A stretch of 56,137 bases of DNA from Candidatus Caldipriscus sp. (GTDB taxonomy: Bacteria > Hydrothermota > Hydrothermia > LBFQ01): positions 1 to 56,137 of the forward strand of contig JBMSAP010000091.1 of assembly GCA_049414445.1 (NCBI GenBank), read 5' to 3'. Below are positions 1,064 to 55,346 of the stretch, piece by piece (position 1 is the stretch's first letter; each line of letters starts with the position of its first letter). The translations under genes were made by a program, and so were the position numbers. The notes under the pieces are model-generated. The model was not told the DNA's origin, searched no databases, and saw only the letters and a program-made list of their open reading frames with translations.

Positions 1064-1127
1064 TCCACTATCCTCCTCTTATAAACGGGAATTTTAAGAT
1101 GATTTTCACCCTTAAGATAGAAGGTTT

Positions 1128-1967
1128 ATGAACAAATACGGAAGTTTGATTTTGGGCTTAGTTTTCCTTGCTCTGGGTATCTTCATAGGCTCTTTTGGCA
1201 CAATTTACTTTAAGGGGAAAGCTGAAGGGGGATCGGAGGAAGTGCCGAAGGACGTATATAAAAAGGTTGGGGAGGTTTATATAACAAAGACGGATTTGGA
1301 GATGGCTTCCTCTATACCTCAGATCACCGCATCAAAGGAGGATATAGAGAAGGGGATCATAAAACTCGCCCTGTTTTACAACGAGGGAAAAAATTTGGGT
1401 TTGGATAAGGACAGTACGGTTAAGAGGTTAATGTACTGGGCGGAGAAGAACGTGGTTGCGGACGCCTTCTATAGGAAATATGTGCTTCCAAAGATAACGG
1501 TGGATACGACAGAGGTTATAAAGTTTATAAACGAGCATAAGGAAGAGTTTTCTACTGAAATTGCTATGCTTACGGTTTCTTTTCAGGATCCTAAACTTGC
1601 AGATACTTTAAAGAAACTTTTGAGGGACGGAAGTTATGCTGCGAACCTCATGCTTGAGGAATTCGCGAGGGGAGGGAAGATAGGGGTTCAGCCTACCGGT
1701 TATCAAAACTTGGGACTTGGAAGGTTCGCCCTAAGCGAAGAGGAATATGGCGCTTTAAGGGGCGCAAAGAAGGGGGATGTTATAGGGCCATTTCAGGTTG
1801 GACCGAACGTATTCGTGGTTGCGAAGGTGGTGGATATTAGAAAAACGAATATAAATAAGCTTGACCCACAGGTTAAAAGTATAATATACCAGTTCCTGCT
1901 TGAAAAGAGGCGCGTGGAGGTTGAAGATTCAGTTTTTTCCGCCCTTTCCGCTAAGTACAGGAGGTGA
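1128..1967 (+). CDS. Membrane-anchored SurA/PrsA-like foldase (degenerate PpiC-type domain)
   Basis: N-terminal TM; 'KVGEVYITKTD' SurA-N-like start; 'KKGDVIGPF...VFVVAKV' parvulin-like tail; upstream of surA. Confidence 0.65.
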   Translation: MNKYGSLILGLVFLALGIFIGSFGTIYFKGKAEGGSEEVPKDVYKKVGEVYITKTDLEMASSIPQITASKEDIEKGIIKLALFYNEGKNLGLDKDSTVKRLMYWAEKNVVADAFYRKYVLPKITVDTTEVIKFINEHKEEFSTEIAMLTVSFQDPKLADTLKKLLRDGSYAANLMLEEFARGGKIGVQPTGYQNLGLGRFALSEEEYGALRGAKKGDVIGPFQVGPNVFVVAKVVDIRKTNINKLDPQVKSIIYQFLLEKRRVEVEDSVFSALSAKYRR

Positions 1968-1970
1968 GGC

Positions 1971-3200
1971 ATGTTATTTTTGCTTATTTCTCAGCTTGAT
2001 ACGGTTGATAGGATAGTGGCGGTGGTTGGAAATAGGGCGTTTTGGATGTCCGAGGTGGACGAGATAGCCTTAATATACGGGGGGGCTATGGGGATAACAC
2101 CGGACAAACTCGGGGAGTTTAGGAAAGCGGTCCTTGAGGAACTTGTGAATATGGAGCTTTTATACCTAAAGGTGAGGCAAGATACAACCATAAAGGTTTC
2201 CGATCAAGAAATAAATCAAGCCCTTGATCAGCAAATAAACATTCTTATGGGAAACCTGAAAAAAGAGGAATTTGAGGAAAGGCTTAAGGAAGCCGGGCTT
2301 ACGGTGGATTACCTTAGGGAGTATTATAGGGGTTTTGTGCAGAGAAACCTTTACATCCAAAAGTTTGTTGAGATGAAGATAAGACCGAACATAAAAGTCA
2401 GCGATGAGGAGGTTATGAACTTTTATAAAACTTACAAGGATTCCCTAAAACAGCCGGACGAGTATAAGATCGCGGTTATTTCCTTCATAGTTAAACCATC
2501 GGCGAGCGAGGAACAGGAATATTACCAAAGGGCGAAAAATATACACGAGAGGTTGAAGAAGGGGGAGGATTTCTCAAGGTTGGCAGTGCAGATGTCGGAC
2601 GATAGGGAGAGCGCGCAAAGGGGTGGAAATTTAGGCGTGATACCCAAGAACGCATTACCACCGGATTTCATAAAGGAAATAGAAAAAACATCGGTGGGCG
2701 GGATCACGAAACCCTTAAGGGGACCTCAGGGTTATCATATCTTTAAAGTACTTGGGAAACAGGATGATTCATACCTTTTGGCTCATATATTGGTGAAAGT
2801 TAAACCCTCGCAAAGGGCAAAGAATAATGTTATGGCGCGGGCAAAGAGGGTGGCAAACTTGGCCAAAGCGGGGCAGGACTTCTCAAAGCTTGCTAGGACT
2901 TATTCCGAAGATCCAATAAGTAGGGAGAACGGAGGGGATATAGGTTGGGTGAGTGAAGTGGTTTTGCCCAAGAACCTCGCCGAAATCTTAAGAAACGCCA
3001 AGGTGGGTGATATAGTTGGACCAATCGAATCTCCCGATGGTTTAACGATAAATATTTTCAAGGTCCTTGATAAGAGGGAGGGTAAGGAGCCCACATACGA
3101 AGAAATTAGAAATGTGGTCTTGGGTAGGAAAATAGATGAGCAGTTAAAAAAGCTCGTAGAGGATGCAAAGAAGGAGTTTTATTACAAGATCAACCTATGA
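1971..3200 (+). CDS. surA: SurA-like periplasmic chaperone/peptidylprolyl isomerase with two PpiC domains
   Basis: 'VDRIVAVVG' N-domain; two parvulin repeats (GEDFSRLA..SDD..SAQRGGNLG; GQDFSKLA..YSEDP.S...GGDIG); AGGAGG SD. Confidence 0.88.
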   Translation: MLFLLISQLDTVDRIVAVVGNRAFWMSEVDEIALIYGGAMGITPDKLGEFRKAVLEELVNMELLYLKVRQDTTIKVSDQEINQALDQQINILMGNLKKEEFEERLKEAGLTVDYLREYYRGFVQRNLYIQKFVEMKIRPNIKVSDEEVMNFYKTYKDSLKQPDEYKIAVISFIVKPSASEEQEYYQRAKNIHERLKKGEDFSRLAVQMSDDRESAQRGGNLGVIPKNALPPDFIKEIEKTSVGGITKPLRGPQGYHIFKVLGKQDDSYLLAHILVKVKPSQRAKNNVMARAKRVANLAKAGQDFSKLARTYSEDPISRENGGDIGWVSEVVLPKNLAEILRNAKVGDIVGPIESPDGLTINIFKVLDKREGKEPTYEEIRNVVLGRKIDEQLKKLVEDAKKEFYYKINL

Positions 3201-3800
3201 GGTTTGGGATATTAACCTTTGTAAGGAGGGCCTTATTAAACGGGGATGAATTTTGGGGTTTTAGGGATGGTTGGCAGGGTGTTGTAGTTTAATCCTTTGG
3301 AATACAGGGGCTTTATAAATTCTGCCCTTTCAACCTTGCAAGAAGTTGATGGTTTGGTGGTTATAGGGGGAAAGTGGTGTTCATACCAAAAACCATTGAT
3401 AACGATATATGGGGTACGGAAAGTATAGGTTTTGATAATTACATTCAACTGCTGAATCCCAAAAGAGGGTTTTTGTGGTCCAGGTTATGGGGAGGCATAC
3501 GGGTTGGATAGCCCTGTATTTGGGAATATCGGCGGGGGCGGATGTTATCGTAATACCCGAGTGCCAAATAGCGGAAGTCGTTGAAAACAGGAGGAGGAAG
3601 GGGAGAAAATTTAGTAAGGTATTCGGATCAGAAGGTTCAATAGGTTTGTTGAGGTAGGGTATGTCCTTAGGGGGGAAGCCCGAGCGCGTATGACAGGCTT
3701 ATGGCACATACTATGGGAAATTTTGCTTATGAACTTTTATCAAAAGGTAAATTGGTTATGATGTCTTTGCCTTGGACGTTAGCCTTGAGGAATTCCTAAG
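3197..3800 (+). pseudogene. pfkA: Heavily eroded 6-phosphofructokinase (PfkA family) remnant; end approximate
   Basis: Collinear fragments in shifting frames: MRFGILT (ATG 3197), GLVVIGG, PKTIDNDIWGT..IGFD (~3386), VMGRHTGWIAL...ADVIVIPE (3475-), GYVLRGG/SPSAYDR (~3657-3697); many stops and deletions. Confidence 0.85.
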
Positions 3801-3875
3801 GGTCAAAATATTTTTTGGATAATATGCTCCATTTATCTGAATTTTATTTTTCTTAAATCCCATTAATTTTTTCTT

Positions 3876-10641: not shown

Positions 10642-11765
10642 CTATCAACGTCCCCAAAAACCGGATCTAAGGAACCCAAGATGGAAGTGGTATCCGCTAT
10701 GTAATGTCCGAGTAATATATGCTGTATTGCCATGAGGTTTGAGTAAGATGGGGAGCGGAGTTTTACCCTCGCGGGTTGGGGCTTTCCGTCGGAATATATA
10801 AACGCCCCAAGCTCCCCCCTCGGGCTTTCAACTTTGGCGTAAACCCAAGTGTTCGGGGGAAGCTTTATACCCACGGGCGTCTTCACGGGCATACGGGAGC
10901 TTATGGGACCTGAGGGTAGCCCATCTATAACCTGTTCAATTATTTTGAGGGATTCAAAGAGTTCAAGGTACCTTACGGTGGCCCTTGAGAAGGCGTCTCC
11001 CCCCTCCAAAGTTATCACGTTGAACTGGAAATCGTTATATGAGGAGTATCCGTCCGCTTTCCTGACGTCGTATGGCACACCGCTTGCCCTTAACGTGGGT
11101 CCGGATGCCCCTATTCTCAGGGCCAAATCCTTCGGTAAAACACCAACATTCACCGTCCTCGCTTTGAATATTGAGTTAGTTAAGAAAGGTTCATAATCCT
11201 CAAAGGACTTCCTTAGATACTTAACGGTTTCCTTGACTTTCCTGTCAAAACCTGCAGGGACGTCGTACCTTACCCCACCTATAAAGACGAAGTTGGGATG
11301 GAACCTTGAACCCGTAAGGATCTCTTTAAGGTCCAAAAGTTTTTCCCTATCCCTAAAACAGAACATGGCTAAATTTGTGCCACCCCCAAACGCCCCACCG
11401 AGGTCAAGCCCGTAAGTTCCTATCGCCACAAGGTGGGATGTGATCCTCTCTATCTCCGATAGTAAAACCCTAAGGTATTGAGCCCTTTTCGGCACCTCTA
11501 TTCCCGCCCCTTTTTCCACCGCCAAAACGAAAGCTAAGGCGTTTAGTGATGGGGCAAGGTAATCGTTCCTTTCAAGGATTGGAGGAATATTGTCGTACCC
11601 CCTATACTCGCAGAGCTTTTCAACCCCCCTGTGAAGATAACCTATTACGGGCTCAACCTTAAGGATCTTTTCCCCTTCAAGGTGTAAGATCAACCTTAGG
11701 ACCCCATGCGTTGATGGGTGCTGGGGTCCCATATTTAGCACAAGCTCCTCCGTCCTTACGGTCAT
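10638..11765 (-). CDS. nuoD: NADH-quinone oxidoreductase subunit D (49-kDa family), stand-alone
   Basis: LNMGPQHPSTHGVLRL, GYLHRG.EK, E.ERI.SH, GP.LRASGV.YD.RK, ESPRGELG, GSLDPVFGDVDR; no NiFe CxxC pairs. Confidence 0.9.
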   Translation of the reverse strand: MTVRTEELVLNMGPQHPSTHGVLRLILHLEGEKILKVEPVIGYLHRGVEKLCEYRGYDNIPPILERNDYLAPSLNALAFVLAVEKGAGIEVPKRAQYLRVLLSEIERITSHLVAIGTYGLDLGGAFGGGTNLAMFCFRDREKLLDLKEILTGSRFHPNFVFIGGVRYDVPAGFDRKVKETVKYLRKSFEDYEPFLTNSIFKARTVNVGVLPKDLALRIGASGPTLRASGVPYDVRKADGYSSYNDFQFNVITLEGGDAFSRATVRYLELFESLKIIEQVIDGLPSGPISSRMPVKTPVGIKLPPNTWVYAKVESPRGELGAFIYSDGKPQPARVKLRSPSYSNLMAIQHILLGHYIADTTSILGSLDPVFGDVDR

Positions 11766-11773
11766 AAGCGGAA

Positions 11774-11804
11774 ATTATACCGCTGTTGTGTTCCCCCTTA
11801 AAAT
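11774..11804. promoter_or_regulatory. Back-to-back -10 boxes for nuoD (-) and ispH (+)
   Basis: TATAAT (minus, 11774-11779) 8 nt before ATG 11765; TAAAAT (11799-11804) 7 nt before ATG 11812; no SD. Confidence 0.7.
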
Positions 11805-11811
11805 AAGCATA

Positions 11812-12741
11812 ATGGGATTTAGAATATATTTGGCTCACCCTAGGGGTTTCTGCGCAGGGGTGGATAGGGCTATAGAGATCGTGGAAAGGGCTTTGAAGCT
11901 TTTCGGGAAACCCGTATATGTGAGGCACGCGATCGTTCATAACAGGTACGTGGTGAGGGATTTGGAGCAAAAAGGGGCGATGTTCGTTGAGGATATAAAC
12001 GAGATCCCGGAGGGCTCAATAGTGATCTTCTCCGCGCACGGCGTGTCCCCTAAGGTTAGGGAGGAGGCTTTGAGGAGAAATTTGAAGGTTATAGACGCGA
12101 CATGCCCGCTTGTACATAAGGTTCATAAAGAGGTTAGGAAGTTCGCCCAGGAGGGATACACGATAATCTTGGTTGGTCATAGGGGACACGTGGAGGTGGA
12201 GGGTACGATGGGGGAGGCACCCGATAAGGTGATATTGGTTGAAAGCCTTGAGGATGCACAGGAGGTTGAAGTTCCCGACCCCAACAAGGTGGCGCTAACA
12301 ACGCAAACAACACTTTCCGTAGATGATACGAGGGAGATAATAGAAGTTTTAAAGAGGAGATTTCCTAATATCGTTCTACCAAAGACCGAAGATATTTGTT
12401 ATGCCACACAAAACCGTCAGGATGCGGTGAAGAAACTCGCGAAGATTTCGGATTTGGTTTTGGTAATAGGCTCAAAGGAGAGCTCCAATTCAAACAGGCT
12501 TAGGGAGGTGGCGGAAAAAAACGGGGCAAGGGCATTCTTAATAGAGGATGAGAGCTATATAGAGGAAAGTTGGCTTGAAAACGTTAAGGCGGTGGGTGTA
12601 ACATCAGGGGCATCAACTCCTGAGGTTTTGGTTAGGAGGGTGGTTTGGAGGCTTTTGGAGATGGGTGGGGAATTTGTGGAGGAGTTGGACGGAATTAAGG
12701 AAAACGTAAAATTTGCCCTACCAGAGGAGGTAAGGGTTTGA
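11812..12741 (+). CDS. ispH: 4-hydroxy-3-methylbut-2-enyl diphosphate reductase
   Basis: PRGFCAGV.RAI, IVHN, FSAHGV, DATCPLV.KVH, QTTLS, ICYATQNRQ, SSNS.RL, TSGASTP; likely start ATG 11812. Confidence 0.97.
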   Translation: MGFRIYLAHPRGFCAGVDRAIEIVERALKLFGKPVYVRHAIVHNRYVVRDLEQKGAMFVEDINEIPEGSIVIFSAHGVSPKVREEALRRNLKVIDATCPLVHKVHKEVRKFAQEGYTIILVGHRGHVEVEGTMGEAPDKVILVESLEDAQEVEVPDPNKVALTTQTTLSVDDTREIIEVLKRRFPNIVLPKTEDICYATQNRQDAVKKLAKISDLVLVIGSKESSNSNRLREVAEKNGARAFLIEDESYIEESWLENVKAVGVTSGASTPEVLVRRVVWRLLEMGGEFVEELDGIKENVKFALPEEVRV

Positions 12742-13598: not shown

Positions 13599-13853
13599 TC
13601 ACTTAGCTTTTCCGGGTCTTATTGGGCTTCCCCTCCTTTCATACTCCTTGTTTATATAATCGTAAATCTGGTTGTAATATTCCTCGGACTTTTTTGTGCT
13701 GTCGGAAAGTTCCTTCGCCATCTCCCTCAACCTCTTTATTTCCAACCTCAAGCTATCCACCTCCCTCTCCAACCTTTCCACCCTCCTTACGTACTCCTTT
13801 GGCACCGTTGAACAGGATAATAGAACAAAAGAAAATAAAACCCACCTTTTCAT
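13599..13853 (-). CDS. Small coiled-coil lipoprotein, hypothetical
   Basis: MKRWVLFSFVLLSC lipobox; heptad-like charged segment; -10 box 6 nt upstream. Confidence 0.7.
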   Translation of the reverse strand: MKRWVLFSFVLLSCSTVPKEYVRRVERLEREVDSLRLEIKRLREMAKELSDSTKKSEEYYNQIYDYINKEYERRGSPIRPGKAK

Positions 13854-13862
13854 TTCGGAATT

Positions 13863-14777
13863 TTAAGGTTGCCTTAAATAACCCCGGGCGAACTCCTCCC
13901 CCGTTATAACCCTCCTCCCCTCCACCTGAATTTTGAGGATCTCCACGCACCCGTCCGAACATCCCAAAATCAGCTTCCTTTCCCTTTTATCGTAAAATAT
14001 TTCTCCGATCTCACGTTCCCTTTCGCGAAAAATTGGCCTTGCATGCAGGATCTTTAAATTTTTCCCCTTCCATATATACCTAGCACCGGGCTTCGGGGAA
14101 AGTCCGTTTATCTTTCCCACCGTCCTTTTTACCCCTTCCTCGGGCCTTACGAACTCCTCCTCAGGCTTTATTTTTGGGGCGTAAGAAACTTCCCCAACTT
14201 GCTCCTTAAATTCTCTGAACCCCTCAAGGATCATAAGCGCAGATCTATAAAGCATCTCCGCACCGATCTTTGCCACCTTTGGTATCACATTCCCCTTTGT
14301 TTCTTCGCATGGATTTATGGGGATTTTATCCTGTAAGACTATCTTTCCCTCGTCTATCCTTTCCGTCATAACGAAAACCGTCAAACCTAAAATATCCTCG
14401 CAGTTGAAGAAAGCCCTCTCAATTGGGGATGCTCCCCTGTATTTGGGCAACAAAGATGGGTGAAAGCATAGGGGGAAAAGCTTTGGGATCTCCAAAACCT
14501 CTTTTGGTAATTTTCCCCCGTAATCCGCGAGCATAATGAAATCCGGCTCAATTTCTTTCAGTTCCTTTAAAAAACCTTCATCCGCCAAGGATAGGGGTGT
14601 CAAAACCTCAATTCCAACCTCCAAAGCAAGCTCCTTCACGGGTGTCGCCTGAAGCCTTTTACCCCTACCCTTCGGGGCATCGGGTTTCGTAACCACCAAA
14701 ATTGGTTTAACGAAGTTTAAAAGGTTTTTCAGAACCTCCCTTGAAACTTCACCCCCTCCAAAATATACGACTTTCAA
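13863..14777 (-). CDS. fmt: Methionyl-tRNA formyltransferase
   Basis: VVTKPD.PKGRG, HPSLLPKYRGASPI, D.G, YAPKI, P.PGA. Confidence 0.93.
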   Translation of the reverse strand: MKVVYFGGGEVSREVLKNLLNFVKPILVVTKPDAPKGRGKRLQATPVKELALEVGIEVLTPLSLADEGFLKELKEIEPDFIMLADYGGKLPKEVLEIPKLFPLCFHPSLLPKYRGASPIERAFFNCEDILGLTVFVMTERIDEGKIVLQDKIPINPCEETKGNVIPKVAKIGAEMLYRSALMILEGFREFKEQVGEVSYAPKIKPEEEFVRPEEGVKRTVGKINGLSPKPGARYIWKGKNLKILHARPIFREREREIGEIFYDKRERKLILGCSDGCVEILKIQVEGRRVITGEEFARGYLRQP

Positions 14778-14783
14778 GTGGGA

Positions 14784-14811
14784 ATTTTAAGTGGGAAAAC
14801 CCCCTTACAAT
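14784..14811. promoter_or_regulatory. Back-to-back -10 boxes for fmt (-) and osmC (+)
   Basis: TAAAAT (minus, 14784-14789) 6 nt before TTG 14777; TACAAT (14806-14811) 8 nt before ATG 14820. Confidence 0.68.
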
Positions 14812-14819
14812 AAACGTCT

Positions 14820-15251
14820 ATGGCAATAGTTAGGAAGTCTTCCGCGATTTGGAAAGGTGTTTTGAGGGATGGGGAAGGAAGGATGGTGGTGGGAAGAGGG
14901 TACTTTGAGGGGCCTTTTACTTTTGCTTCAAGGTTTGAAAGCGGTGAGGGAACTAACCCGGAGGAGCTTATAGGTGCTGCGCATGCGGGTTGCTTTAGTA
15001 TGGCCCTATCTTCAACTTTGGAAAAGGCGGGATACAAACCCGTTGAAATACATACCGAGGCGGAGGTAATAATGGAGATGAAGGAAGAAGGACCGAGAAT
15101 AACGAAGATAGTTTTACACACAAAGGCAAGGGTTGAGGGGATAGATAGGGATACCTTCCTGAAACTTGCGGAGCAGGCGAAAAATAATTGCCCGGTTTCG
15201 GTTGCATTAAGGGGGGTTGGTGAGATAGTTCTGGAGGCAGAACTCCTTTAA
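14820..15251 (+). CDS. osmC: OsmC family peroxiredoxin
   Basis: SRFESGEGTNPEELIGAAHAGCFSMALS; AK.NCPVS. Confidence 0.95.
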   Translation: MAIVRKSSAIWKGVLRDGEGRMVVGRGYFEGPFTFASRFESGEGTNPEELIGAAHAGCFSMALSSTLEKAGYKPVEIHTEAEVIMEMKEEGPRITKIVLHTKARVEGIDRDTFLKLAEQAKNNCPVSVALRGVGEIVLEAELL

Positions 15252-16135
15252 TGGATGTATATATAATAGGGGCACCGTTTACGGGAAAAAGCACCCTTTT
15301 GGAGAGGCTTACGGGTGGAAAAGGTGTGGGGTCTTTGAAATTGAACGATGAGAGGTTTGAGGCTTTGGTTGATTTTTTCAAACCAAAGAAGATTACGCCA
15401 CCTTACATAAATTTGCACGATAATCCTAAAAACTTGGCGAAGGCGGATGCCTTGGTAGAGGTCGTCGGTGGCTTAACGGAAAACTTCACCTCCTTCGTTG
15501 ATACTACTTTGAACTTCCTCAGCTTTGAAGCCGAAGTTTTACTCTCAAACATAAAAAAGCTGGAAAAGAGGGGGGAGGAAAAAACTTTAAGGATCCTGAA
15601 AAAAGCGTACGATGCGGTTTCAGGGGGGATCCCTTTGTTCTCGTTGGGTCTTGATGAGGAGGAGGTAAAAGTCCTGAGGGGGTACGGCCTTCCTTCCCTA
15701 AAGCCCAGACTTATAATCCTAAACAAAACAAGGGAATCAAATATAGGGGAGGAGGTATATTCGGAGCTTAGAACCCAGAACCTTCCGTATCTGGAGATGA
15801 ACATATTGGAGGACAACCCGGAGGAGATGGGAAGGAAAATCTTCCTGAAGATCTTGGAAATAACGGGTATGATAGTTTTCTTTACCCCTTCGGAGAAGGA
15901 GGTTAGGGGTTGGCTTTTGGAGAGGGGAGCGACCGTGGTTGAGGCTGCGGGAAAGATCCACAACGACTTTGCCAGGACCTTCGTGAAAGCGGAGGTTATA
16001 GATTGGGAGAGCTTAATAAAGGGTGGGGGGTGGAAAGGGGCAAAGGAGAAAAACCTTATACGCCTTGAGGGAAAGGATTACATAGTTAAGGATGGGGATT
16101 GTATATACATAAGGGCTTCCGCAATAAAATCCTAA
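15251..16135 (+). CDS. ychF: YchF/OLA1-like P-loop protein with C-terminal TGS (DUF933) domain, shortened and divergent
   Basis: GAPFTGKSTL Walker A; FFT...EVRGW, AAGKIHNDF..TFVKAEVI, RLEGKDYIVKDGD. Confidence 0.75.
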   Translation: MDVYIIGAPFTGKSTLLERLTGGKGVGSLKLNDERFEALVDFFKPKKITPPYINLHDNPKNLAKADALVEVVGGLTENFTSFVDTTLNFLSFEAEVLLSNIKKLEKRGEEKTLRILKKAYDAVSGGIPLFSLGLDEEEVKVLRGYGLPSLKPRLIILNKTRESNIGEEVYSELRTQNLPYLEMNILEDNPEEMGRKIFLKILEITGMIVFFTPSEKEVRGWLLERGATVVEAAGKIHNDFARTFVKAEVIDWESLIKGGGWKGAKEKNLIRLEGKDYIVKDGDCIYIRASAIKS

Positions 16136-16138
16136 ATT

Positions 16139-36881: not shown

Positions 36882-36892
36882 GTAAGGGGAAA

Positions 36893-36898
36893 ATTTTA
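36893..36898 (-). promoter_or_regulatory. -10 box for the tRNA-Ser-prs unit
   Basis: CCT-TAAAAT on minus strand, 11 nt before tRNA position 1. Confidence 0.62.
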
Positions 36899-38397: not shown

Positions 38398-38405
38398 AGT
38401 AGGGT

Positions 38406-38458
38406 ATTGTAAGGTGTGATGGGTTTTTGAACGATCGTTCAAGAACCACCCTTAGAAT
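38406..38458. promoter_or_regulatory. Divergent -10 boxes for M32 peptidase (-) and RND adaptor (+)
   Basis: CCT-TACAAT (minus, 38406-38411) and CCT-TAGAAT (38453-38458), each 8 nt before ATG. Confidence 0.68.
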
Positions 38459-38466
38459 ACCCGAGT

Positions 38467-42300: not shown

Positions 42301-42347
42301 TTTATACTTACCTTACCGCAAATGAGAAAAAATCACACCATCCTTAA
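39300..42347 (+). CDS. RND efflux permease (AcrB/AcrD/AcrF family)
   Basis: FVNRP, LP.D..P, YPGASPE.VE, G..VD..IVVVEN, G.VVNNAI, RLRPILMTT.TT; 1015 aa. Confidence 0.95.
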   Translation: MTRFFVNRPTLSLVIYLVLIIGGIFGFINLPVDLLPKFTLPSVSVIIQYPGASPEDVEKNVVDVVESNLSILENIDRITSTSQNGLGVITVTFKYGTDVDKATLDVKDRLNFISAFLPEDASDPLILKFDIQQFPVVIATVNATEEGFDIREWAEEFLVDELQRVEGVGLVQVWGGGKKRRVNVYIHRDKLDNYNLNLQSVIEVLKSQGVDIPVGEVRYSDKDMILKVPQNLKSVEDLKELVVSFSAGRPIKLYEIADVEEGYAKRVNYIDSRGKDAVLFAVQKKADANVVSVVEKVKKKFKEIEDKYPVKFTIQTDGSTFIKASISNLRNTIFISGILVILITLIFLLDIRSSLIIALTFPSSLIIAFLYLFLTGSSINIISLSALALAIGSVVDSSIVVVENIFYHRLKGEPPRESAEFATNEVRNALIASTITNFIVLLPLFFIPGFIGVIFKELASISVVVYLASLFLALSVTPSLSANQLRLKPITEPKWFLPIEKFYNRAIKFVVRHRFAFLWVFVSLLIITASLWRFVPTEFFPQADEGQIRGSIEFARGTSLDKTYQTMLPIIEEVYKIPEVEEAVFRVGPTETGFGAALGVVEAPYTSFFLVRLKEDSKRSTFEIAEEIEKLIKGLPGVEKYEVSSTGQGNQILFGGSRGAVVRIYGDEIETLDSLANILAGIMSNIRGLKNVQTSIGNPRPEFILKIDRDKAYSYGITPVQVALFLRYAITGQNIFTLKSGGKNLEVWLSLRESDRENLDKVLSLSINTPLGLVPLSNFVELQEGYSPIKIDRWNRERYVEVSGDVVGRPLGEITNELKAILRDFKFPRGYSYEFGGAIQRQAESFSQLFVLLILGLILIYLTVSAQFESFKQGIIIFITSIPFGLAGASLGFLLFKQPLSITGFIGLIALTGVVVNNAIVMVSYANILIRRGRDKFSAIIEASTRRLRPILMTTLTTSFGVLPLAIIKQQGSEFWSALGVAIFGGLNFSLITTLFVVPVIYTYLTANEKKSHHP

Positions 42348-42356
42348 AATTCCAAT

Positions 42357-43220
42357 ATGCCATCCGTTGTGGTTATGGACGATATTGATGAGGAGGGTTT
42401 GGAGCTTTTGAGGGAAAAGGGATTTGAGATTTTGCCGAGGGAAAATTTTGAAGAAGCGGATGCGATGATCGTAAGGGGAGCTACAAAAGTAAATAAGGAG
42501 CTTTTGGATAGGTGTAAAAAGTTGAAGCTTGTTGTTAGGGCGGGGGTTGGGCTTGACAACATAGACGTAGAGTACGCAAAACAAAAGGGAATAGAAGTTA
42601 GGAATATTCCAAAGGCAACGGTGATATCCGTTGCGGAACTTACCTTGGGACTAATTCTATCCGCTTTAAGGATGATCCCTCAGGCTCACATATCAACAAA
42701 GGGGGGAAATTGGGAGAAGAAAAGGTTTGTGGGATCCGAGCTTTACGGGAAGAGGGTGGGTTTGGTGGGTTTGGGAAATATAGGGCTTGAGGTTGCAAAA
42801 AGGTGTGAAGCTTTCGGGGCCGAAGTTGTATATTACGATATCGTTGATAGGGAGATTTACAGGAAATTAAGCCTTGAGGAGCTTTTTAGGATCTCAGATA
42901 TCGTCTCCTTACATTTACCCTTAAATCCCTCAACGGAAGGCATGATAAACTACGATCTTCTTTCCCTATTAAAACCCAACGCCATACTTGTAAATACCGC
43001 AAGGGGAAATTTGATAAGAAAGGAGGATCTGTTAAGGTTTTTAAAGGAGAGGAAGGATGTGGTTGTGGCGCTTGATGTATTTTGGAAGGAACCCCCGGAG
43101 GGGGAAATACTTGACCTTGAGAACGTAATTTTTACCCCGCATATAGGGGCCCAGACGAAGGAGGCACAAAGGAGGGCATCAACGGAAGCTGCAAGAATAA
43201 TAATTGAGTTCTTCCGATGA
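42357..43220 (+). CDS. serA: D-3-phosphoglycerate dehydrogenase-like D-2-hydroxyacid dehydrogenase (no ACT domain)
   Basis: RAGVGLDNID, SVAEL, G.GNIG, SLH.PL, NTARG, LDVF..EP, TPHIGAQT.EAQ; next to DUF1015. Confidence 0.8.
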   Translation: MPSVVVMDDIDEEGLELLREKGFEILPRENFEEADAMIVRGATKVNKELLDRCKKLKLVVRAGVGLDNIDVEYAKQKGIEVRNIPKATVISVAELTLGLILSALRMIPQAHISTKGGNWEKKRFVGSELYGKRVGLVGLGNIGLEVAKRCEAFGAEVVYYDIVDREIYRKLSLEELFRISDIVSLHLPLNPSTEGMINYDLLSLLKPNAILVNTARGNLIRKEDLLRFLKERKDVVVALDVFWKEPPEGEILDLENVIFTPHIGAQTKEAQRRASTEAARIIIEFFR

Positions 43221-44200
43221 AAAAATTAAAGGTTTTCGCCCCAAGAAACCCCCATCCCGTACCATACGAAAACCTCTGGGATACCCTAATTAACGATAAG
43301 GAGAAGGTATTGAGGAGGGATTTGGATTTCTTGGGGGAGGGTTTTTTGCTTATAAAGCAGGAGTTTGAGATTAATGGGGAAAGGAGGGTGAGAAAGGCAT
43401 TTGTTGCATTTTTAAACAAAATGGATTACAGGTTTTACCCTCACGAGGATTTCTTCCCCGAAGGGGTAAGGTTTTACAGGGAGATCTTCAATTCTTACCC
43501 TTACCAGTTTGCTCCAATAATGGGTTTGGTGGATGGGGGAAACTGGATCTCAAGCTTAAATGAGGGAAGAAAGGTGGGGGAATATACCGCAAATGGGGTA
43601 AAAACGGAAGTTTTTTTTACAGAACCTTTGGGAAATTTACCGAGGGAGGTTTTCATAGCGGATGGGCATCATAGGTTTGAGGCGGTGGAAGGGGATGTTT
43701 TATTTGCCCTAATTGACGTAAAAGATCCAAGCTTGATGATCCTTCCCACGCACAGGCTTTTGAAAGTTAAAATTTCGGATCTGAAAGGTTTCCTTGAGGG
43801 GAAGGAGGTGGAATTATTTCCTATAAGATCCTTGGAGAGTTTGGGGGAGATCATAAAAATGGCTCAATTCCCGGTGATATTGTACTTGGGGGGAAACAGG
43901 AAACCGTTTGGGGTGATATATAAAGGGGAAAGGGGGATCCTAACGGAAATTCCGGCTTATATTTGCGATTTTTACATTTTTGAAGGTAAATACGAGGTGA
44001 TAACGGGGTACTACAGGGATTGGAGGGAGGCGGTGAAGAAAGCGGAGGAGGGTCATACCGTAGCGCTGGTTTCTCCTACAAAACCAATAGATGTTATAAA
44101 GGTGGCGAGGGAAGGGATGAGGATGCCGAGAAAATCTACGGACTTTTACCCAAAGCTCGTTGCGGGACTTTTCTACGTTCAACCTTCTACATCCTTATAA
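43217..44200 (+). CDS. DUF1015 family protein
   Basis: PHE, IADGHHR, ILPTHR, MPRKST.FYPKL..GL. Confidence 0.88.
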   Translation: MKKLKVFAPRNPHPVPYENLWDTLINDKEKVLRRDLDFLGEGFLLIKQEFEINGERRVRKAFVAFLNKMDYRFYPHEDFFPEGVRFYREIFNSYPYQFAPIMGLVDGGNWISSLNEGRKVGEYTANGVKTEVFFTEPLGNLPREVFIADGHHRFEAVEGDVLFALIDVKDPSLMILPTHRLLKVKISDLKGFLEGKEVELFPIRSLESLGEIIKMAQFPVILYLGGNRKPFGVIYKGERGILTEIPAYICDFYIFEGKYEVITGYYRDWREAVKKAEEGHTVALVSPTKPIDVIKVAREGMRMPRKSTDFYPKLVAGLFYVQPSTSL

Positions 44201-44209
44201 TCTTCAACA

Positions 44210-44983
44210 ATGCTTGCCTTTGCTTATGATGTATTTCTTGGCGATTTTTCCTTGTATTCCCTAAAGTCCCATATTCCAAAGGGAGAGATATACACCTCCG
44301 CCTATAACTTCGTCGCGGGAAGCTTTGGGGGGGAGTTGGGGGGAGAAAGGAGAGGGATTTTGGGAAATTTGAAGTTTTTCTCCTCCGGAAATATGGAGAG
44401 GACGGATGAGGATGGACAAGTTTTGGGAAACTTTTCGTCAAATTTTATAAAACTTTCGGGCGGAAGGGAAGTTAAGGTTGGGAATTTTTACGGGATCCTT
44501 GGCGTAGGGCTTTCTTACGTCTCCCTTGATCAGAAGAACGTGGGGATAGGGGCAAGCTTATTTTCCAGGATATTCACCATCAGGGAATTTAAGGGTTTTA
44601 ACGTTGAGGGTTATCTCCTTTTGGATAACGTTGGGTACGAGCTAAAACCCATAGGATTGAGTAGGGGAATATTACCTTACAAGGTTTCCCTTGGGGGGAA
44701 GGTTTTCGGTGATAAGTCCTCCGCCCTCCTTGAGATCGGTAGATACTATATGGGAAATTACGTTAAGGTGGGGGGTGAGCTTGGGGTAAACATCTTAAAT
44801 TTGGGTTTTTCCTTTGATAGCAGACTTAGAAACTTGAACGGCGGGTACGGGCTTGACTTTTTAAGTGGTCTTTCAATTTTCGGTGGGGTGGAATACAGGA
44901 ACGTAAAATTCGAATATTCTTATACTTTTATGGGGTTGTTTGGTTCAAGGAACATTTTCCAAATTTCTTACAGGCTAAACTAA
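44210..44983 (+). CDS. Outer-membrane beta-barrel, PorV/PorQ-like
   Basis: G..ERTDEDG...G.F, N.G, LP....LG, DYSY-like EYSY...G.FG, alternating beta pattern ending ISYRLN. Confidence 0.6.
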   Translation: MLAFAYDVFLGDFSLYSLKSHIPKGEIYTSAYNFVAGSFGGELGGERRGILGNLKFFSSGNMERTDEDGQVLGNFSSNFIKLSGGREVKVGNFYGILGVGLSYVSLDQKNVGIGASLFSRIFTIREFKGFNVEGYLLLDNVGYELKPIGLSRGILPYKVSLGGKVFGDKSSALLEIGRYYMGNYVKVGGELGVNILNLGFSFDSRLRNLNGGYGLDFLSGLSIFGGVEYRNVKFEYSYTFMGLFGSRNIFQISYRLN

Positions 44984-49247: not shown

Positions 49248-51462
49248 AAGCTTTCTTTACCTCATCAAGGATGCGGGAAGTTCTTTCGCTTATTTGGCCT
49301 AGGTTTTCGGACATCCTAATAACCATTCTATCAATGTTCTCAAGGGATATATACGTTTCCTTTACTGCGCTTGCGGATTCGTATAAAGCCTGCGCTATAG
49401 CCCTCACCATCTCGTCGCTTTTCTCTATCCTCTCCGATATCTCCCCAAAAACATCAACTATACCCCTCGCCCTTTCCCTAATCCCCTCCAAATTCCCCTC
49501 CCACCAATCCCTCTCTTTCATTATACCTTCTATTTTACTCCTTATCTCCTCCATACCCTTGTTTATGCTTTCTATTATAAGGTTGCTTTTTTCAGAAAGC
49601 CCCCTTATCTCCCGAGAAACAACCTCAAACGGACCCCCTTCCCCCATCTTATACGCCTCAACCGTCGCGTTTATTGAAACCAAGTTTATCTTCTCTATTA
49701 TCCTTGACAAACCCTCAACGTTCTCGCTTAAATTTTTAGCTATTTCCGACACCCTCTCCAAATTGGATATTATCCTCCCAAGTTCTTCAACCTTTTTCTC
49801 AAAATCCCCAATGTTCTCGAGGGTGATTTGATAGCCGTTTTGGGAGGACTTCAACGCCTGCTCCGAAAGTGCCTTAAGCTCATCCATGGAAGGTTTCAAA
49901 ACTTCCTCAAAAGACTTGGATATTTGCCTAACCGCAGTTGAAATCTGTGAGATTTGCAGGTTTATCTCCTTAATCGATACAAAGGTTTCCCTTACTTTAT
50001 CCAAGAGAGAATTTAACGAAAGGATCAATACCTCCATCTCCCTCTTTGGCTTCTCGTAAAACTCTCGGTTTATGTAATCTCTAGCTATTCCCATAGGAAC
50101 ATATAAGGATACCACCTCAAATCTTGGTTTGTTTTCCAAAACGGAAAATACGTAGTTTTCACTTGTAAAGCAAAGTAAAGCTACCAATATTGGGTTATTT
50201 ATCCCGCCAGCATATAAAAGCAATGAAGGTAAAATCATACCATTCTTCCAAAGGATATATCCTCCGAGAATTAAGATAGCAGAAAAAGAGAATAAAAAGG
50301 CCCCGTAAGCCCAGATGATCCACCTACCACCCCCATATTCCCCGCTTTTTACGGAGAACATTTCCTTCAATCTTTCAACAATCCCCCTTATATCCTCCGC
50401 GGTTCTTTTTATATAGCTAACATCACCCATTAAATCCTTAACCGCTACGTTTATTTCTTCCACCGCTATGCCCATTTGGATTAGGGATGCGGAAGCATCC
50501 TCTACGGTCCTTGATACCAATCCCGCCTCTTGAGCCATTCTATTTACCGAATCCTCTATTTCCTCAAACCTTTTCCCTATCTCCCTCGCCCCCATTATCA
50601 CCCCCTCAAACCCTATCCCTTCCAATCTTCCAATACTCTCCGTTAAAGATCTGTTTAACTCTTCAAGGTTTTCAATGGATTTTATGGTTATCTCCCTCGT
50701 GCTATCCGACAAAATCTTCATCTCCTCCACCATTTTGGAGATGTTTGCCGAATTTCTATATTTAACCGATTCAAGGGAAATCTGGTAGGATAAAGCCGAT
50801 ATGAACTTCCCTATATCCCTCAATTCTCTGGATGTTTGAAGCAACCCCTTAACAGAAACTTCCGAACTTTTAAGGCTTTTAAGGAATTCCCCAAACCTAA
50901 ACCCCATATCCTCAAATAGGGTAAAGTTCCCCTCCAAAAACTTAACACCCTCCTCCGCTCTAACTTTATTATCCATCCAGGCGGAATATATCTCCGACAT
51001 ATTCCTTGATACAACATTGGAAAATGCGCGTGAGATTTGTGAAACGGATGTTGAGATCTGCTCCAAACTCACCATTATATCTTCAAAAGATCTTTCCAAC
51101 TCCCTTGAAAGCTCGAGAATTTCACTGTAGATCTCAAATGCAATCCCAGAAATTTTTAAGGGTGTCAATAATTCCCTTTCCCTTAGCTTCTTAACCACCC
51201 TATCAAAGTTGTAGTAAAACATCCACCTTTTTATTTTGATTGGCGTTCCCTCTTTTGCGAATCTAATCACTTCTATAAAATGCCTTGGAACATCCCTGCG
51301 AGCATCCAGGATGTTAAGGAGGTAAAGTATTCCAAAGATCAACAAAAGTGTGGCAAAAATAGGATTTCCCAAACTCAAGAAAAACGCTATTCCGATGAAA
51401 GGGGCAATTATTGGAGGCAAGACATACAAAAAAAGGATAAATCCAACTATAACCCTTACCAA
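49234..51462 (-). CDS. Tandem (double) methyl-accepting chemotaxis-like protein
   Basis: Two TM-pair + coiled-coil modules; second tip INLVSINATVEAYKMGEGGPFEVVSREIRGLSE is MCP-like, first is degenerate. Confidence 0.8.
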   Translation of the reverse strand: MVRVIVGFILFLYVLPPIIAPFIGIAFFLSLGNPIFATLLLIFGILYLLNILDARRDVPRHFIEVIRFAKEGTPIKIKRWMFYYNFDRVVKKLRERELLTPLKISGIAFEIYSEILELSRELERSFEDIMVSLEQISTSVSQISRAFSNVVSRNMSEIYSAWMDNKVRAEEGVKFLEGNFTLFEDMGFRFGEFLKSLKSSEVSVKGLLQTSRELRDIGKFISALSYQISLESVKYRNSANISKMVEEMKILSDSTREITIKSIENLEELNRSLTESIGRLEGIGFEGVIMGAREIGKRFEEIEDSVNRMAQEAGLVSRTVEDASASLIQMGIAVEEINVAVKDLMGDVSYIKRTAEDIRGIVERLKEMFSVKSGEYGGGRWIIWAYGAFLFSFSAILILGGYILWKNGMILPSLLLYAGGINNPILVALLCFTSENYVFSVLENKPRFEVVSLYVPMGIARDYINREFYEKPKREMEVLILSLNSLLDKVRETFVSIKEINLQISQISTAVRQISKSFEEVLKPSMDELKALSEQALKSSQNGYQITLENIGDFEKKVEELGRIISNLERVSEIAKNLSENVEGLSRIIEKINLVSINATVEAYKMGEGGPFEVVSREIRGLSEKSNLIIESINKGMEEIRSKIEGIMKERDWWEGNLEGIRERARGIVDVFGEISERIEKSDEMVRAIAQALYESASAVKETYISLENIDRMVIRMSENLGQISERTSRILDEVKKAYAKA

Positions 51463-51470
51463 ATTACCTG

Positions 51471-51492
51471 ATATTATATGCGGGATTAGAAT
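51471..51492. promoter_or_regulatory. Divergent -10 boxes for the MCP operon (-) and rfaE1 (+)
   Basis: TATAAT (minus, 51473-51478) 10 nt before TTG 51462; TAGAAT (51487-51492) 8 nt before ATG 51501. Confidence 0.6.
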
Positions 51493-51500
51493 TTCGGAAG

Positions 51501-52403
51501 ATGAAAATTGCGGTTATTGGGGATGTGATGCTTGACGAGTACGCCTTTGGAAGTGTTGAAAGGATATCTCCAGAGGCTCCCGTGCCAGTTTTTCTATATA
51601 AAAGTAGTAAGTTTATGCCCGGGGGAGCGGCGAACGTCGCTTTAAACTTGGTTAGACTTGGGTTTGAGGTTTATCTCTTTGGAATAATCGGTGAAGACGA
51701 GGATGGGGAGAGGCTTGCAAACCTATGCGAAGATTTGGGGATAAACTTTAGGTTTTACAAGGGTAGCCTTAGGACATTAAAAAAAACCCGTCTCCTTGCA
51801 AAACATCACCATGTATTAAGGATAGATTACGAGGAGAGGTTTTCCGAAAGCGATGCTTATGGATTATTGGATCTTATTAATATCAACGTTGATGCGGTGG
51901 TAGTGTCAAATTACGATAAGGGGACGGTTATTCCGGAAACTTTAAATTTCGTTAGGAAAAGGTTCCAGGATAAATTAAAGGCGATAGATCCAAAATCTTT
52001 AATATGGGAGGCGAGGGGTTTTGATATCGTTAAGCCGAACTTAAGCGAGATTTCCTCGGCATTGCACAGGAAACTCCTAAGCATTGAAGATGTCCTTCAA
52101 GCTTCAAGGGAGATCTTTAATACTCTAAAACCAGAAGCCCTTATCTCCACTATGGGGGATAGGGGTATGTGGATAATTACATATAATAGGGAAATTTACG
52201 TACCCGCGTACAGGAGGGAGGTTTACGATATTACGGGGGCGGGGGATACGGTTTTGGCTTGGGTTGTTTGGGGTAGATTGCAAAATTTGGATTGGGAGGA
52301 GATAGGGAGGTGGTCGGCAAAGGCGGCGGCGGTTTCGGTTTCAAAGCTCGGGGCATATGCACCCACCATTGATGAGGTATTAAAGGAATTCCCCACCCTA
52401 TAA
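51501..52403 (+). CDS. rfaE1: D-glycero-beta-D-manno-heptose-7-phosphate kinase-like PfkB kinase (HldE kinase domain)
   Basis: GDVMLD.Y..G.V.RISPEAPVPV, GGAANVA.N, T..KTR, YDKG, DPK, KPN..E, VYD.TGAGDT. Confidence 0.88.
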   Translation: MKIAVIGDVMLDEYAFGSVERISPEAPVPVFLYKSSKFMPGGAANVALNLVRLGFEVYLFGIIGEDEDGERLANLCEDLGINFRFYKGSLRTLKKTRLLAKHHHVLRIDYEERFSESDAYGLLDLININVDAVVVSNYDKGTVIPETLNFVRKRFQDKLKAIDPKSLIWEARGFDIVKPNLSEISSALHRKLLSIEDVLQASREIFNTLKPEALISTMGDRGMWIITYNREIYVPAYRREVYDITGAGDTVLAWVVWGRLQNLDWEEIGRWSAKAAAVSVSKLGAYAPTIDEVLKEFPTL

Positions 52404-53894: not shown

Positions 53895-53901
53895 GGACAC
53901 G

Positions 53902-53930
53902 TTGAAATTATTGGTGGAATGCCATAAAAT
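53902..53930 (+). promoter_or_regulatory. Sigma70-type promoter for the 53939 gene
   Basis: TTGAAA (53902-53907), 17 nt, TAAAAT (53925-53930), 8 nt, ATG. Confidence 0.7.
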
Positions 53931-53938
53931 TCTGGGTT

Positions 53939-55342
53939 ATGGTTAGCTTTCTCTTAAGCGCTTGCGGTTGCCCGACCTATAAGGTTAATATAAGCAATAG
54001 GCCGGGTGTGGTGGATTACACCTATAACGACGCGAACTATATTTCCACCGAGAGGAGTACAAAGAATATAGCAAGCTGTAAGGGTAAGGTTCATATCGCC
54101 TGGTTCGGTAGGAACTCTTCGGGGCAGACCGCGGTTTTCTATAGGAGAAGTACAAACGGTGGAGTGACATGGGATCCCGCCCTTCAACTTACCCCGTTTG
54201 TGGGAAATCTGGGACTTGAGATGTGGGTTCAGTGCTACGGGGATACGGTGGTCGTCGCGTACGAGAAGGTTGAATCCGACAACAACATCTATTACAGGTA
54301 TTCAACCAACGGAGGAAATACCTGGAGTTCTGAAGCCCTTCTAAGGGGAGGTTCAAACAATCAGGAGGCGCCATCAATATGGATATGGGGAAACAACTTC
54401 CACCTTGCCTGGTCTGATAATACCCCACCCGCCCTTGTACCCGTATATTACGTCTGGTATGGTAGGAGTACGACCTTAGGCTCAAGCTGGGTTTCAAGTG
54501 GGAGGAGGGATCTCTCGGATTCTCCGATAATAGTTGGGGATCCAACGAATCCCAACAGGCTTCACATAATATTTATGATCTTCAACGCCCTCGAGAGAAA
54601 GGCTAGGTATATAAGGAGCACCGATGGGGGATCAACGTGGTCCTCCACCTTTGACCTATCAAATGGAGTTAACGCGGGTGGGAGCGGTTTTTGGGGAAGG
54701 CCAATAGGTTCAATAAGCGCATACGGGAATTATGTACATGCGGTTTTCGTTGATGAAAGATTCGGGAACAAGGAGGTCCTATACAGGAGATCCACGGATG
54801 CGGGGGCAACATGGTCTGCAATAATCAACTTAAGCGGAACACCGGATACATCCTGGAGCCCTTATATATTAACGAATAACGCGGGGGAGGTTAGGGTTTA
54901 TTGGGTGGATAAGAGCGATGGGGATTACGAGGTTCTGTGCAAGATCTCCACGAATAACGGTTCAAGCTGGTCTGCAAACTACAGATTGACAAATAATACC
55001 GCAAAGGACGTTATGGTGAGCTTGGATTACGATCCCACAAATTCCAGGTGGCACATAGTTTGGTCATCAAACGAAGGGGGGAATTGGGAGGTTTATTACA
55101 CATCCGATCCATGTCCCACATCTTCGGACGATGACCTGGGTGTAGCGGAAGGGGAAGAGGTTGGGAGCTTTCGGATAGGGAGGGATGGGATAATATTACA
55201 TAAGGATGCGGAGGTAAGGGTTTTTGATGTCTCGGGAAAACTTTATATCTCGGGGAAGTTTGTAAAGGGGGAAAAGGTTCGGCTTAAGAGGGGGGTCTGG
55301 TTCATCCTGATAGATGGGAAAATTTACAGGGTTATAATATAG
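53939..55342 (+). CDS. Secreted Asp-box (BNR)/sialidase-fold protein with T9SS-like C-terminal domain
   Basis: Repeats STNGGVTW, STNGGNTW, STDGGSTW, STDAGATW, STNNGSSW; tail VRVFDVSGK...LKRGVWFI...RVII. Confidence 0.82.
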   Translation: MVSFLLSACGCPTYKVNISNRPGVVDYTYNDANYISTERSTKNIASCKGKVHIAWFGRNSSGQTAVFYRRSTNGGVTWDPALQLTPFVGNLGLEMWVQCYGDTVVVAYEKVESDNNIYYRYSTNGGNTWSSEALLRGGSNNQEAPSIWIWGNNFHLAWSDNTPPALVPVYYVWYGRSTTLGSSWVSSGRRDLSDSPIIVGDPTNPNRLHIIFMIFNALERKARYIRSTDGGSTWSSTFDLSNGVNAGGSGFWGRPIGSISAYGNYVHAVFVDERFGNKEVLYRRSTDAGATWSAIINLSGTPDTSWSPYILTNNAGEVRVYWVDKSDGDYEVLCKISTNNGSSWSANYRLTNNTAKDVMVSLDYDPTNSRWHIVWSSNEGGNWEVYYTSDPCPTSSDDDLGVAEGEEVGSFRIGRDGIILHKDAEVRVFDVSGKLYISGKFVKGEKVRLKRGVWFILIDGKIYRVII

Positions 55343-55346
55343 TGTT

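Follow-up and report, generated by a model that had tools for sequence, protein, structure and literature searches.

Promoters without a -35 element appear to give most operon heads of a Candidatus Caldipriscus genome leaders of zero to a few nucleotides

Discussions of leaderless initiation often present it as an ancestral or minimal form of gene expression, and among bacteria it has been studied in few cultivated lineages, chiefly actinobacteria, Deinococcus and Caulobacter. According to the passages of PMC6028130 that describe the GeneMarkS-2 groups, genomes of group C carry a Pribnow-type box 6-8 nt before the first genes of operons and Shine-Dalgarno (SD) sites elsewhere; such a box lies 6-8 nt from the start in ~40% of Mycobacterium tuberculosis operons, the share of operons predicted to be leaderless in the group is 25-50%, and the figure for Deinococcus deserti is 167/262 genes, which the relevant part of a review puts at ~60% (PMC9031893). 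The same passages give 60-80% leaderless operons for archaeal group D, with Haloferax, Sulfolobus and Halobacterium (PMC6028130). Here we describe a 56,137-nt stretch of DNA (the window; contig JBMSAP010000091.1 of assembly GCA_049414445.1, from Candidatus Caldipriscus sp.), in which a TAnAAT box stands a few nucleotides before the start codons of about 20 genes. In kind this is the known bacterial leaderless architecture of group C, in an extreme form and with an unusual promoter. We directly observe the motif, its position and context dependence, its use before RNA genes, and the conservation both of the motif within a family and of the start codons. We infer the exact start sites and the mode of translation initiation, namely that promoters lacking a -35 element are very probably set so that the mRNAs of most operon heads have leaders of 0 to a few nucleotides. 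Like Mycobacterium, Streptomyces, Corynebacterium and Deinococcus-Thermus, this genome has the box 6-9 nt before operon-first genes and SD sites at others; its lineage, WOR-3, is not among the phyla named in those passages of PMC6028130. With archaeal group D it would share a leaderless majority of operons, but the archaeal TATA box lies 22-26 nt before the start, whereas here a bacterial -10 box lies at 6-9 nt and the sigma factors are bacterial.

The window is one contig (C91) of a metagenome-assembled genome (MAG) of 1.48 Mb in 115 contigs, with a GC content of 44.7% and a completeness of 89%. Its primary sigma factor, RpoD (564 aa), shares 98% identity with proteins listed at NCBI under Candidatus Caldipriscus sp. 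and ~80% with proteins of "candidate division WOR-3 bacterium". The host is an uncultivated, deep-branching hot-spring hyperthermophile. Genes of the window are ordinary Gram-negative housekeeping genes, among them nuoD, ispH, fmt, osmC, pstA, infC, and those for a resistance-nodulation-division (RND) pump and SurA-like peptidyl-prolyl isomerases. Gene starts were taken as the first ATG, GTG or TTG after a stop (the longest open reading frame, ORF), which gave 1411 ORFs genome-wide, 1337 of them with 100 nt upstream.

An earlier note, made from the window alone, had placed TAnAAT 6-10 nt before about 20 starts. The exact hexamer is present at the given spacer at 19/20 of these; the remaining one, before the start at 1128, is TAAGAT at spacer 9, a TAnnAT variant. 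A position weight matrix (PWM) scan blind to that list recovered 18/20 sites. The two lost are 13853, where an ORF was called on the opposite strand, and 55347, whose ORF leaves the window; by eye they carry TAAAAT at spacer 6 and TATAAT at spacer 8, respectively. Genome-wide, TAnAAT occurs before the 1337 longest-ORF starts at spacers of 6 (88 cases), 7 (77), 8 (137) and 9 nt (59), and at ~0-9 for most other offsets. It lies 6-9 nt before 364/1411 (25.8%) of the longest starts, compared with 64/18419 (0.35%) in-frame ATG, GTG or TTG codons more than 100 codons inside ORFs, and the composition-matched hexamers AATnAT and TAAnTA show no peak, so the frequency at the proposed spacing is well beyond background. 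When ORFs are ignored altogether, TAnAAT-N6-9-ATG is found 603 times against 169 at N16-19, and CCTTAnAAT before ATG 150 times (N6-9) against 13 (N16-19). At a PWM score of at least 8 bits the box is present at 450/1411 ORFs, with ~8 expected by chance. Moreover, motif discovery on the -30 to -1 interval, the check that had been suggested, yielded the same element: blind expectation maximisation on 540 operon-first-like ORFs returned WnCnnCYTTAnAATWY in 55%, with the hexamer ending 6-9 nt from the start.

The C-rich bases noticed before the box are a regular part of it, with C in 85% at 6 nt, C in 70% at 3 nt and T in 70% at 1 nt before the first T of the hexamer. Conservation of these three positions reaches 98%, 98% and 92% in 40 tRNA promoters, 95% of which have an A directly after the hexamer. 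Within the hexamer A2 and T6 are near-invariant before protein and RNA genes alike, the signature of a sigma-70 -10 element. The promoter consensus is a compact W-T-C-N-N-C-Y-T-TAnAAT-A-Y-C-C, presumably read by the housekeeping RNA polymerase. The best match to TTGACA at a spacer of 16-18 averages 2.43/6 in 446 promoters, which equals the control offsets (2.42-2.48). tRNA promoters have no -35 either, and no compensating -35 was found in promoters lacking the C extension. A clear -35 at one listed site alone, as the earlier note had it, is indeed seen: TTGAAA, 17 nt upstream of the box at 53925. In E. coli, sigma-70 promoters with a TGn extended -10 function without a -35 element. The present promoters are alike in that strength comes from bases just upstream of the hexamer and the -35 is dispensable, but the bases differ: TGn promoters have T-G at 3 and 2 nt before the hexamer, whereas here C stands 6 and 3 nt, and T 1 nt, before the first T. 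TGn itself is not found: C occupies the first of its two positions (3 nt) in 70% and T in 8%, and the second (2 nt) holds C/T in 51/27% and G in 17%. A C-N2-C-Y-T extension with neither -35 nor TGn, in a genome of 45% and not high GC, also sets the promoters apart from those of group C.

The translation and transcription machinery looks ordinary, with no obvious loss. The genome encodes bacterial sigma factors, and RpoD has regions 1.2, 2, 3 and 4, retaining in region 3 an HMIE stretch that we take to be the TGn-reading residues. S1 and IF3 are both encoded, which rules out the loss of either as an explanation. The MAG holds no 16S rRNA, and the anti-SD is thus taken to be canonical from the AAGGAGGTG leaders of some genes.

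The context of the box supports its behaviour as a sigma-70-type -10 element and not as a translation signal. A box of at least 8 bits is present at 223/340 divergent ORFs, 54/79 ORFs with a gap of 16-40 nt, 32/121 with a larger gap and 111/729 with a tight gap. The use of SD sites or start/stop overlaps by internal genes is borne out by an SD-like motif at 194/729 tight-gap ORFs against 21/340 divergent ones, and the lack of an SD at box genes by the fact that box and SD occur together at no gene. Unlike the SD-free operon heads, infC (IF3; 18653-19180, reverse strand), an internal operon gene, has a strong AAAGGAGGTGAAGGG before its TTG start.

The box also precedes transcription units that have no start codon and whose start sites are predicted. 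It lies 7-15 nt before the 5′ end of 41/46 tRNAs, with a mode of 9, and the five tRNAs without it are four internal members of one tRNA cluster and tRNA-Sec; spacers of 11-15 nt at 13/46 imply a leader of a few nucleotides. For transfer-messenger RNA (tmRNA) the box is at 17 nt, and position 1 of the RNase P RNA model is 9 nt past TTAAAAT. Likewise, an SD of the form (A)AGGAGGTG (GGAGG) starts 9-10 nt past the hexamer in 13/516 relaxed boxes, compared with ~1-2 at other offsets. Operon heads, RNA genes and SD-led genes together calibrate the predicted start site to about 8-10 nt past the hexamer, the usual place of the A of ATG. Box-adjacent ATG genes have T at position -1 in 72%, which makes a pyrimidine-purine step at the putative start. 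Almost all tRNA genes form separate transcription units, with a predicted 5′ leader of 0 to a few nucleotides, although the genome encodes both RnpA and an RNase P RNA (208.9 bits over the full model, 1-367), and loss of RNase P is thereby ruled out. Nanoarchaeum equitans has no RNase P, and each of its tRNA promoters is placed for a start at or next to the mature 5′ end. Its tRNAs are leaderless, as stated in the relevant part of PMC10100707. The likeness lies in tRNA genes with their own promoter close to the mature 5′ end, the differences in the RNase P that this genome keeps and in the tRNAs with a predicted leader of a few nucleotides. A box at nearly every tRNA gene is, moreover, a departure from group C.

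Two other accounts of the motif would leave promoters out of it. As TAAAAT, TAGAAT and TATAAT hold stop triplets and starts were defined as the first after a stop, the TAA or TAG inside the hexamer could close the upstream frame and so place the first start nearby automatically. We consider the chance of this negligible, since the peak spans all three frames (spacers 6, 7, 8 and 9), the stop-free TACAAT also peaks at spacers 6-9 (11 hits) where TAA-containing control hexamers do not, the excess persists when ORFs are ignored, and the C-N2-C-Y-T extension cannot derive from stop codons. Alternatively, the motif could be an AT-rich, non-SD ribosome-binding or enhancer element in 5′ untranslated regions, as in GeneMarkS-2 group B. 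The nearest relatives of RpoD outside WOR-3 are from Cloacimonas and Fibrobacter MAGs, and the Fibrobacteres-Chlorobi-Bacteroidetes (FCB) group is mostly group B in the part of PMC6028130 that treats it; the motifs are alike in being AT-rich, near start codons and in an FCB-related lineage. However, group B motifs stand, according to that part, before all genes including internal ones and inside leadered mRNAs (PMC6028130), whereas here the motif is concentrated at operon heads and RNA genes, namely the 41/46 tRNAs, tmRNA and RNase P RNA. It also lies upstream of a canonical AAGGAGGTG in leadered genes, and its invariant A2 and T6 are those of a -10 element, all of which makes a ribosomal element highly improbable.

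For the extent of the architecture we used a strict extended box, CnnCYTTAnAAT, whose 342 occurrences genome-wide were classified by the downstream feature. An ORF of at least 60 aa begins 5-10 nt past the box with ATG in 194 cases, GTG in 17 and TTG in 14. A small ORF (15-59 aa) adjoins the box in 18, an RNA gene follows in 36, an SD-led gene in 19 and an ATG ORF 11-59 nt past it in 7; 36 are unclassified and one is at a contig end. Strong-box promoters serving protein genes number 269, of which 225 adjoin an ORF of at least 60 aa, or 243 with the small ORFs, and by this count ~84-90% would be leaderless, a share (225-243/269) above that of group C. The earlier statement that nearly all operon heads have 0-3 nt leaders holds for promoters with the strong extended box (243/269); of all divergent ORFs in the gene set, only about two thirds have a called box. 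The 18 boxes that adjoin ATG ORFs of 15-59 codons mark candidate leaderless small proteins, which ordinary gene callers would miss.

Intergenic DNA is correspondingly short. Among 170 divergent pairs the box is present on both sides in 82 and on one side in 59; in the 82 two-box pairs the median distance from start to start is 44 nt, and in 63 it is 50 nt or less. This short spacing makes the reverse-complemented box peak 31-32 nt before starts, and ~44 nt leave no room for a -35 or operators. Each of the paired -10 boxes lies roughly at the other's -35 position, so that two polymerases probably exclude each other. Such 44-bp bidirectional modules are another difference from group C. Divergent leaderless pairs in the window, with control regions of ~38-46 nt, are found at 11766-11811, 14778-14819, 22135-22178, 27421-27458 and 51463-51500. 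The promoter can also overlap the gene upstream: in 80/160 box-adjacent genes with a nearby same-strand upstream gene end, the upstream stop lies in the hexamer or across its last base, at T1 in 48 (TAA or TAG of TAAAAT or TAGAAT), at position 3 in 23 (TAA of TATAAT) and at position 6 in 9. In the window this occurs at 42345-42350 and 44196-44201, and the C-rich extension is then within the last codons of the upstream gene.

In the mechanism that we propose, the -10 hexamer is placed such that transcription would begin about 7-10 nt downstream, at the start codon or 0-3 nt from it. The resulting mRNAs would be without an SD, and ribosomes presumably bind the 5′-terminal start codon directly, while genes inside operons would rely on an SD or on start/stop overlaps. 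One and the same promoter would also drive the RNA genes (tRNAs, tmRNA and RNase P RNA), their mature 5′ ends falling about 9-10 nt past the hexamer, and a small set of genes whose leader would be little more than an SD. In these minimal-leader genes (for example on contigs C19, C30, C34, C63, C77, C83 and C103) AAGGAGGTG lies 9-10 nt past the hexamer, and the mRNA would open with the SD itself.

Box-adjacent starts comprise 378 ATG (84%), 45 TTG (10%) and 27 GTG (6%). Predicted leaderless genes across prokaryotes start with AUG in 79%, GUG in 10% and UUG in 6%, according to the relevant part of PMC8459731. The earlier note called TTG a generally poor leaderless initiator in model bacteria. 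Non-AUG leaderless codons have weak activity in E. coli and Caulobacter reporters, and the 6% UUG shows that TTG in predicted leaderless genes is not without precedent, both from that part of PMC8459731. In the family the first codon of fmt varies: of 10 genomes, including that of the window, 4 have TTG, 2 GTG and 4 ATG, with no shift in the aligned position and with a box 6-11 nt upstream in every case. In pstA it is TTG in 10/10 genomes (two genera, 72-100% protein identity), with a box 6-8 nt upstream; its second codon varies, as does the discriminator. Alignments to NCBIfam profiles start at residues 1-9 in fmt (1), pstA (7), ispH (4), osmC, nuoD, serA and the RND pump. On comparison of these sequences the TTG and GTG starts look real, and the profile alignments and conserved start positions lend indirect support to translation from the 5′-terminal codon.

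The stretch is contained in 24 metatranscriptome runs, four of which (X1, X3, X4 and X6) were compared over positions 10000-29999, always as assembled contigs. All eight contigs of X1 were seen; in X3, X4 and X6 the comparison took in 24 of 1132 pieces, so that bridging contigs are possible there. Contig ends joined to a sequence that we take to be Illumina adapter lie 4-12 nt inside coding sequences in three runs: 11755 in X1 (nuoD, start 11765), 27410 in X1 and 27408 in X4 (start 27420), and 22122 (pstA, start 22134) and 14824 (osmC, start 14820; adapter joined before it) in X6. At four starts an X1 contig ends or begins 9-10 nt into the gene, including an end at 22125 (start 22134) and a beginning at 22188 (start 22179). 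Long RNA contigs span tandem and convergent junctions, such as 14867-22125 and 22188-27410. Of the eight X1 contigs none covers the four divergent promoter regions (11756-11856, 14685-14866, 22126-22187 and 27411-27536), although an uncovered stretch proves nothing. The contig ends hint weakly that transcripts reach no further upstream than the start codons. RNA contigs of X3 and X4 match the window as far as the fmt TTG and depart from it at the very next base upstream (14777/14778), where their sequence matches that before fmt in another genome (G152), which has a different box, GATAAT, at spacer 9. Whole promoter modules appear to distinguish the strains, and the breakpoint falls at the start codon.

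Several points weigh against leaderless initiation at most operon heads. The gene set is a crude greedy ORF call that includes some wrong-strand ORFs, so that percentages are approximate; assembled contigs, here of RNA runs alone, reveal neither the true 5′ end of a transcript nor its strand or level. The TTG at 27459 of the M23 peptidase gene is unsupported by contig ends, with the first X1 contig running from 27537 and an X6 adapter before 27517. Start sites in E. coli mostly lie 7-8 nt past the hexamer. Against this distance the modal spacer of 8 nt is long, and many transcripts may carry 1-2 nt before the ATG. The promoters could then be real and most transcripts begin 1-3 nt before the start codon, with very short leaders in place of a true 5′-AUG and a mode of initiation that differs from the textbook leaderless one. 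We regard this as possible, at well under even chances. It would suit the modal spacer, and spacers of 5-10 nt with a fixed start distance give 0-3 nt leaders. However, the tRNA ends (mode 9), the RNase P RNA (9) and the SDs of the minimal-leader genes (9-10) suggest that the polymerase starts at a greater distance from the hexamer than in E. coli, a T at -1 followed by an A at +1 fits a start at A, and even single extra nucleotides inhibit leaderless translation in the model bacteria covered by the relevant part of PMC8459731. The TTG class raises a separate doubt. ORF-blind counts at N6-9 and N16-19 are 351 and 327 for TTG and 136 and 133 for GTG, and because they lack a clear excess the case for both codons rests on the extended box and the orthologues. 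TTG genes have a modal spacer of 6-7, as opposed to 8 for ATG, which brings the G of TTG to the usual position of the A of ATG, and the base before TTG is C in 69%, so that a start at T would be a pyrimidine after a pyrimidine. Transcription might thus begin at the G, with TTG as discriminator and not as initiation codon. This is unlikely, given the TTG of pstA kept in all 10 genomes while its surroundings vary, the exchange of TTG, GTG and ATG at one aligned codon of fmt, an Fmt profile that aligns from residue 1, and a next in-frame ATG that is tens of codons downstream for most TTG genes.

Leaderless initiation at most operon heads is the reading we prefer, and a more far-reaching version of it can be put forward tentatively, as a conjunction that we doubt will hold in all its parts. 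The family would have rebuilt expression on one module of ~20 bp, in which a new C(-18)/C(-15)/T(-13) extension takes over from the -35 and TGn in recognition by the polymerase, which starts 9-10 nt past the hexamer. Bidirectional regions would measure ~44 bp, promoters would be written in the last codons and stop of upstream genes, RNase P RNA and most tRNAs would be transcribed with their 5′ ends already mature, and ribosomes would routinely initiate on 5′-terminal UUG and AUG at ~80 degrees C.

Counts of CNNCYTTANAAT-N6-9-ATG across the phylum gave 194 occurrences here (5 for the reversed control), 213-348 in each of three further members of the genus, 96-143 in three genomes of the sister genus, 16-44 in five of the sister family, and background levels in the remaining 139 genomes sampled. 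A phylum-wide excess of TANAAT-N6-9-ATG over the reversed control, found nearly everywhere in 151 genomes, was rejected as a composition effect, the positional peak being mostly missing. We looked for that peak in 64-100 kb sampled from each of 8 genomes. It is clear only in the sister genus of the same family (16/53 ORFs, consensus C.cccgTAgAAT), weaker in the sister family of the same order (8/73), faint in one class-level genome (6/84 against 1.7), and absent or doubtful in the other five. Judged by these motif counts, the predicted trait is one of the family and in part of the order, and not of WOR-3 as a whole.

In the full-text literature, excluding subscription journals and supplements, we found nothing on leaderless initiation in connection with WOR-3 or Caldipriscus, nor on WOR-3 transcription start sites. 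The promoter type appears previously undescribed, and most transcription units appear to be leaderless. Gene callers that expect an SD will misplace starts in MAGs of the Caldipriscus family, in which starts, operons and small ORFs can be annotated cheaply by means of the motif. The system lends itself naturally to testing how promoters are recognised without a -35 and to studying how start sites are chosen where discriminators are long; it has a bearing on leaderless initiation at non-AUG codons, and shows how far intergenic DNA can be compressed.

In the window, the sites below come from the PWM scan, except for two identified by eye. The first (1113..1130, forward strand, 10.3 bits) is the TAAGAT variant, at spacer 9 from the ATG of a 279-aa ORF. 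A 46-nt divergent module follows, half of which is TATAAT at spacer 8 from the ATG of nuoD (11763..11779, reverse); on the forward strand, TAAAAT (cccTTAAAAT) stands at spacer 7 from the ATG of ispH (11799..11814). Directly downstream of fmt, an 84-aa ORF has TAAAAT, seen by eye, at spacer 6 from its ATG (13851..13865, reverse). The fmt gene itself has TAAAAT at spacer 6 from its TTG (14775..14789, reverse) and shares a 42-nt divergent module with osmC, which has TACAAT at spacer 8 from ATG (14806..14822, forward). An internal promoter, 3 nt past the end of the upstream gene, places TAAAAT at spacer 8 from the ATG of a 96-aa ORF (16125..16141, forward), and RNA contigs bridge this junction. 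The TTG of pstA has TATAAT at spacer 7 (22132..22147, reverse), and the ATG of a GT2 glycosyltransferase gene, half of a 44-nt divergent module, has TAGAAT at spacer 9 (22164..22181, forward). TATAAT stands at spacer 6 both from the ATG of a 440-aa ORF (27418..27432, reverse) and from the TTG of the M23 peptidase gene (27447..27461, forward), which is the least certain start. A 607-aa ORF has TAAAAT (cccTTAAAAT) at spacer 7 from its ATG (29146..29161, forward; 19.5 bits).

Inspection upstream of the tRNAs added two sites that were absent from the earlier list, with TAAAAT (cgccTTAAAAT) 9 nt before tRNA-Val(tac) at 32765..32853 on the forward strand, and TAAAAT (cgaccTTAAAAT) 10 nt before tRNA-Ser(cga) at 36794..36898 on the reverse strand. 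Further on, a 496-aa ORF has TACAAT at spacer 8 from an ATG 15 codons inside the longest ORF (38395..38411, reverse), and the RND adaptor subunit gene has TAGAAT at spacer 8 from ATG (38453..38469, forward). The ATG of a serA-like dehydrogenase gene follows TAAAAT at spacer 6 (42345..42359, forward), where the TAA stop of the upstream RND pump gene forms bases 1-3 of the box, and a 257-aa ORF has TATAAT at spacer 8 from ATG, with the upstream stop within the box (44196..44212, forward). A 742-aa ORF resembling a coiled-coil or methyl-accepting chemotaxis protein has TATAAT at spacer 10 from TTG (51460..51478, reverse), and the ATG of a heptose-7-phosphate kinase gene, half of a 38-nt divergent module, has TAGAAT at spacer 8 (51487..51503, forward). 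The last two boxes are on the forward strand, each at spacer 8 from ATG: TAAAAT of a 467-aa ORF, without the C extension (53925..53941; 8.9 bits), and TATAAT of the ORF that leaves the window, seen by eye 4 nt past the upstream gene (55333..55349). Lastly, elsewhere in the genome a repeated element of at least 60 nt follows the extended box in four places (C2:~2098, C48:~2211 and ~4619, C52:~2369), and could be a non-coding RNA or the end of a mobile element.

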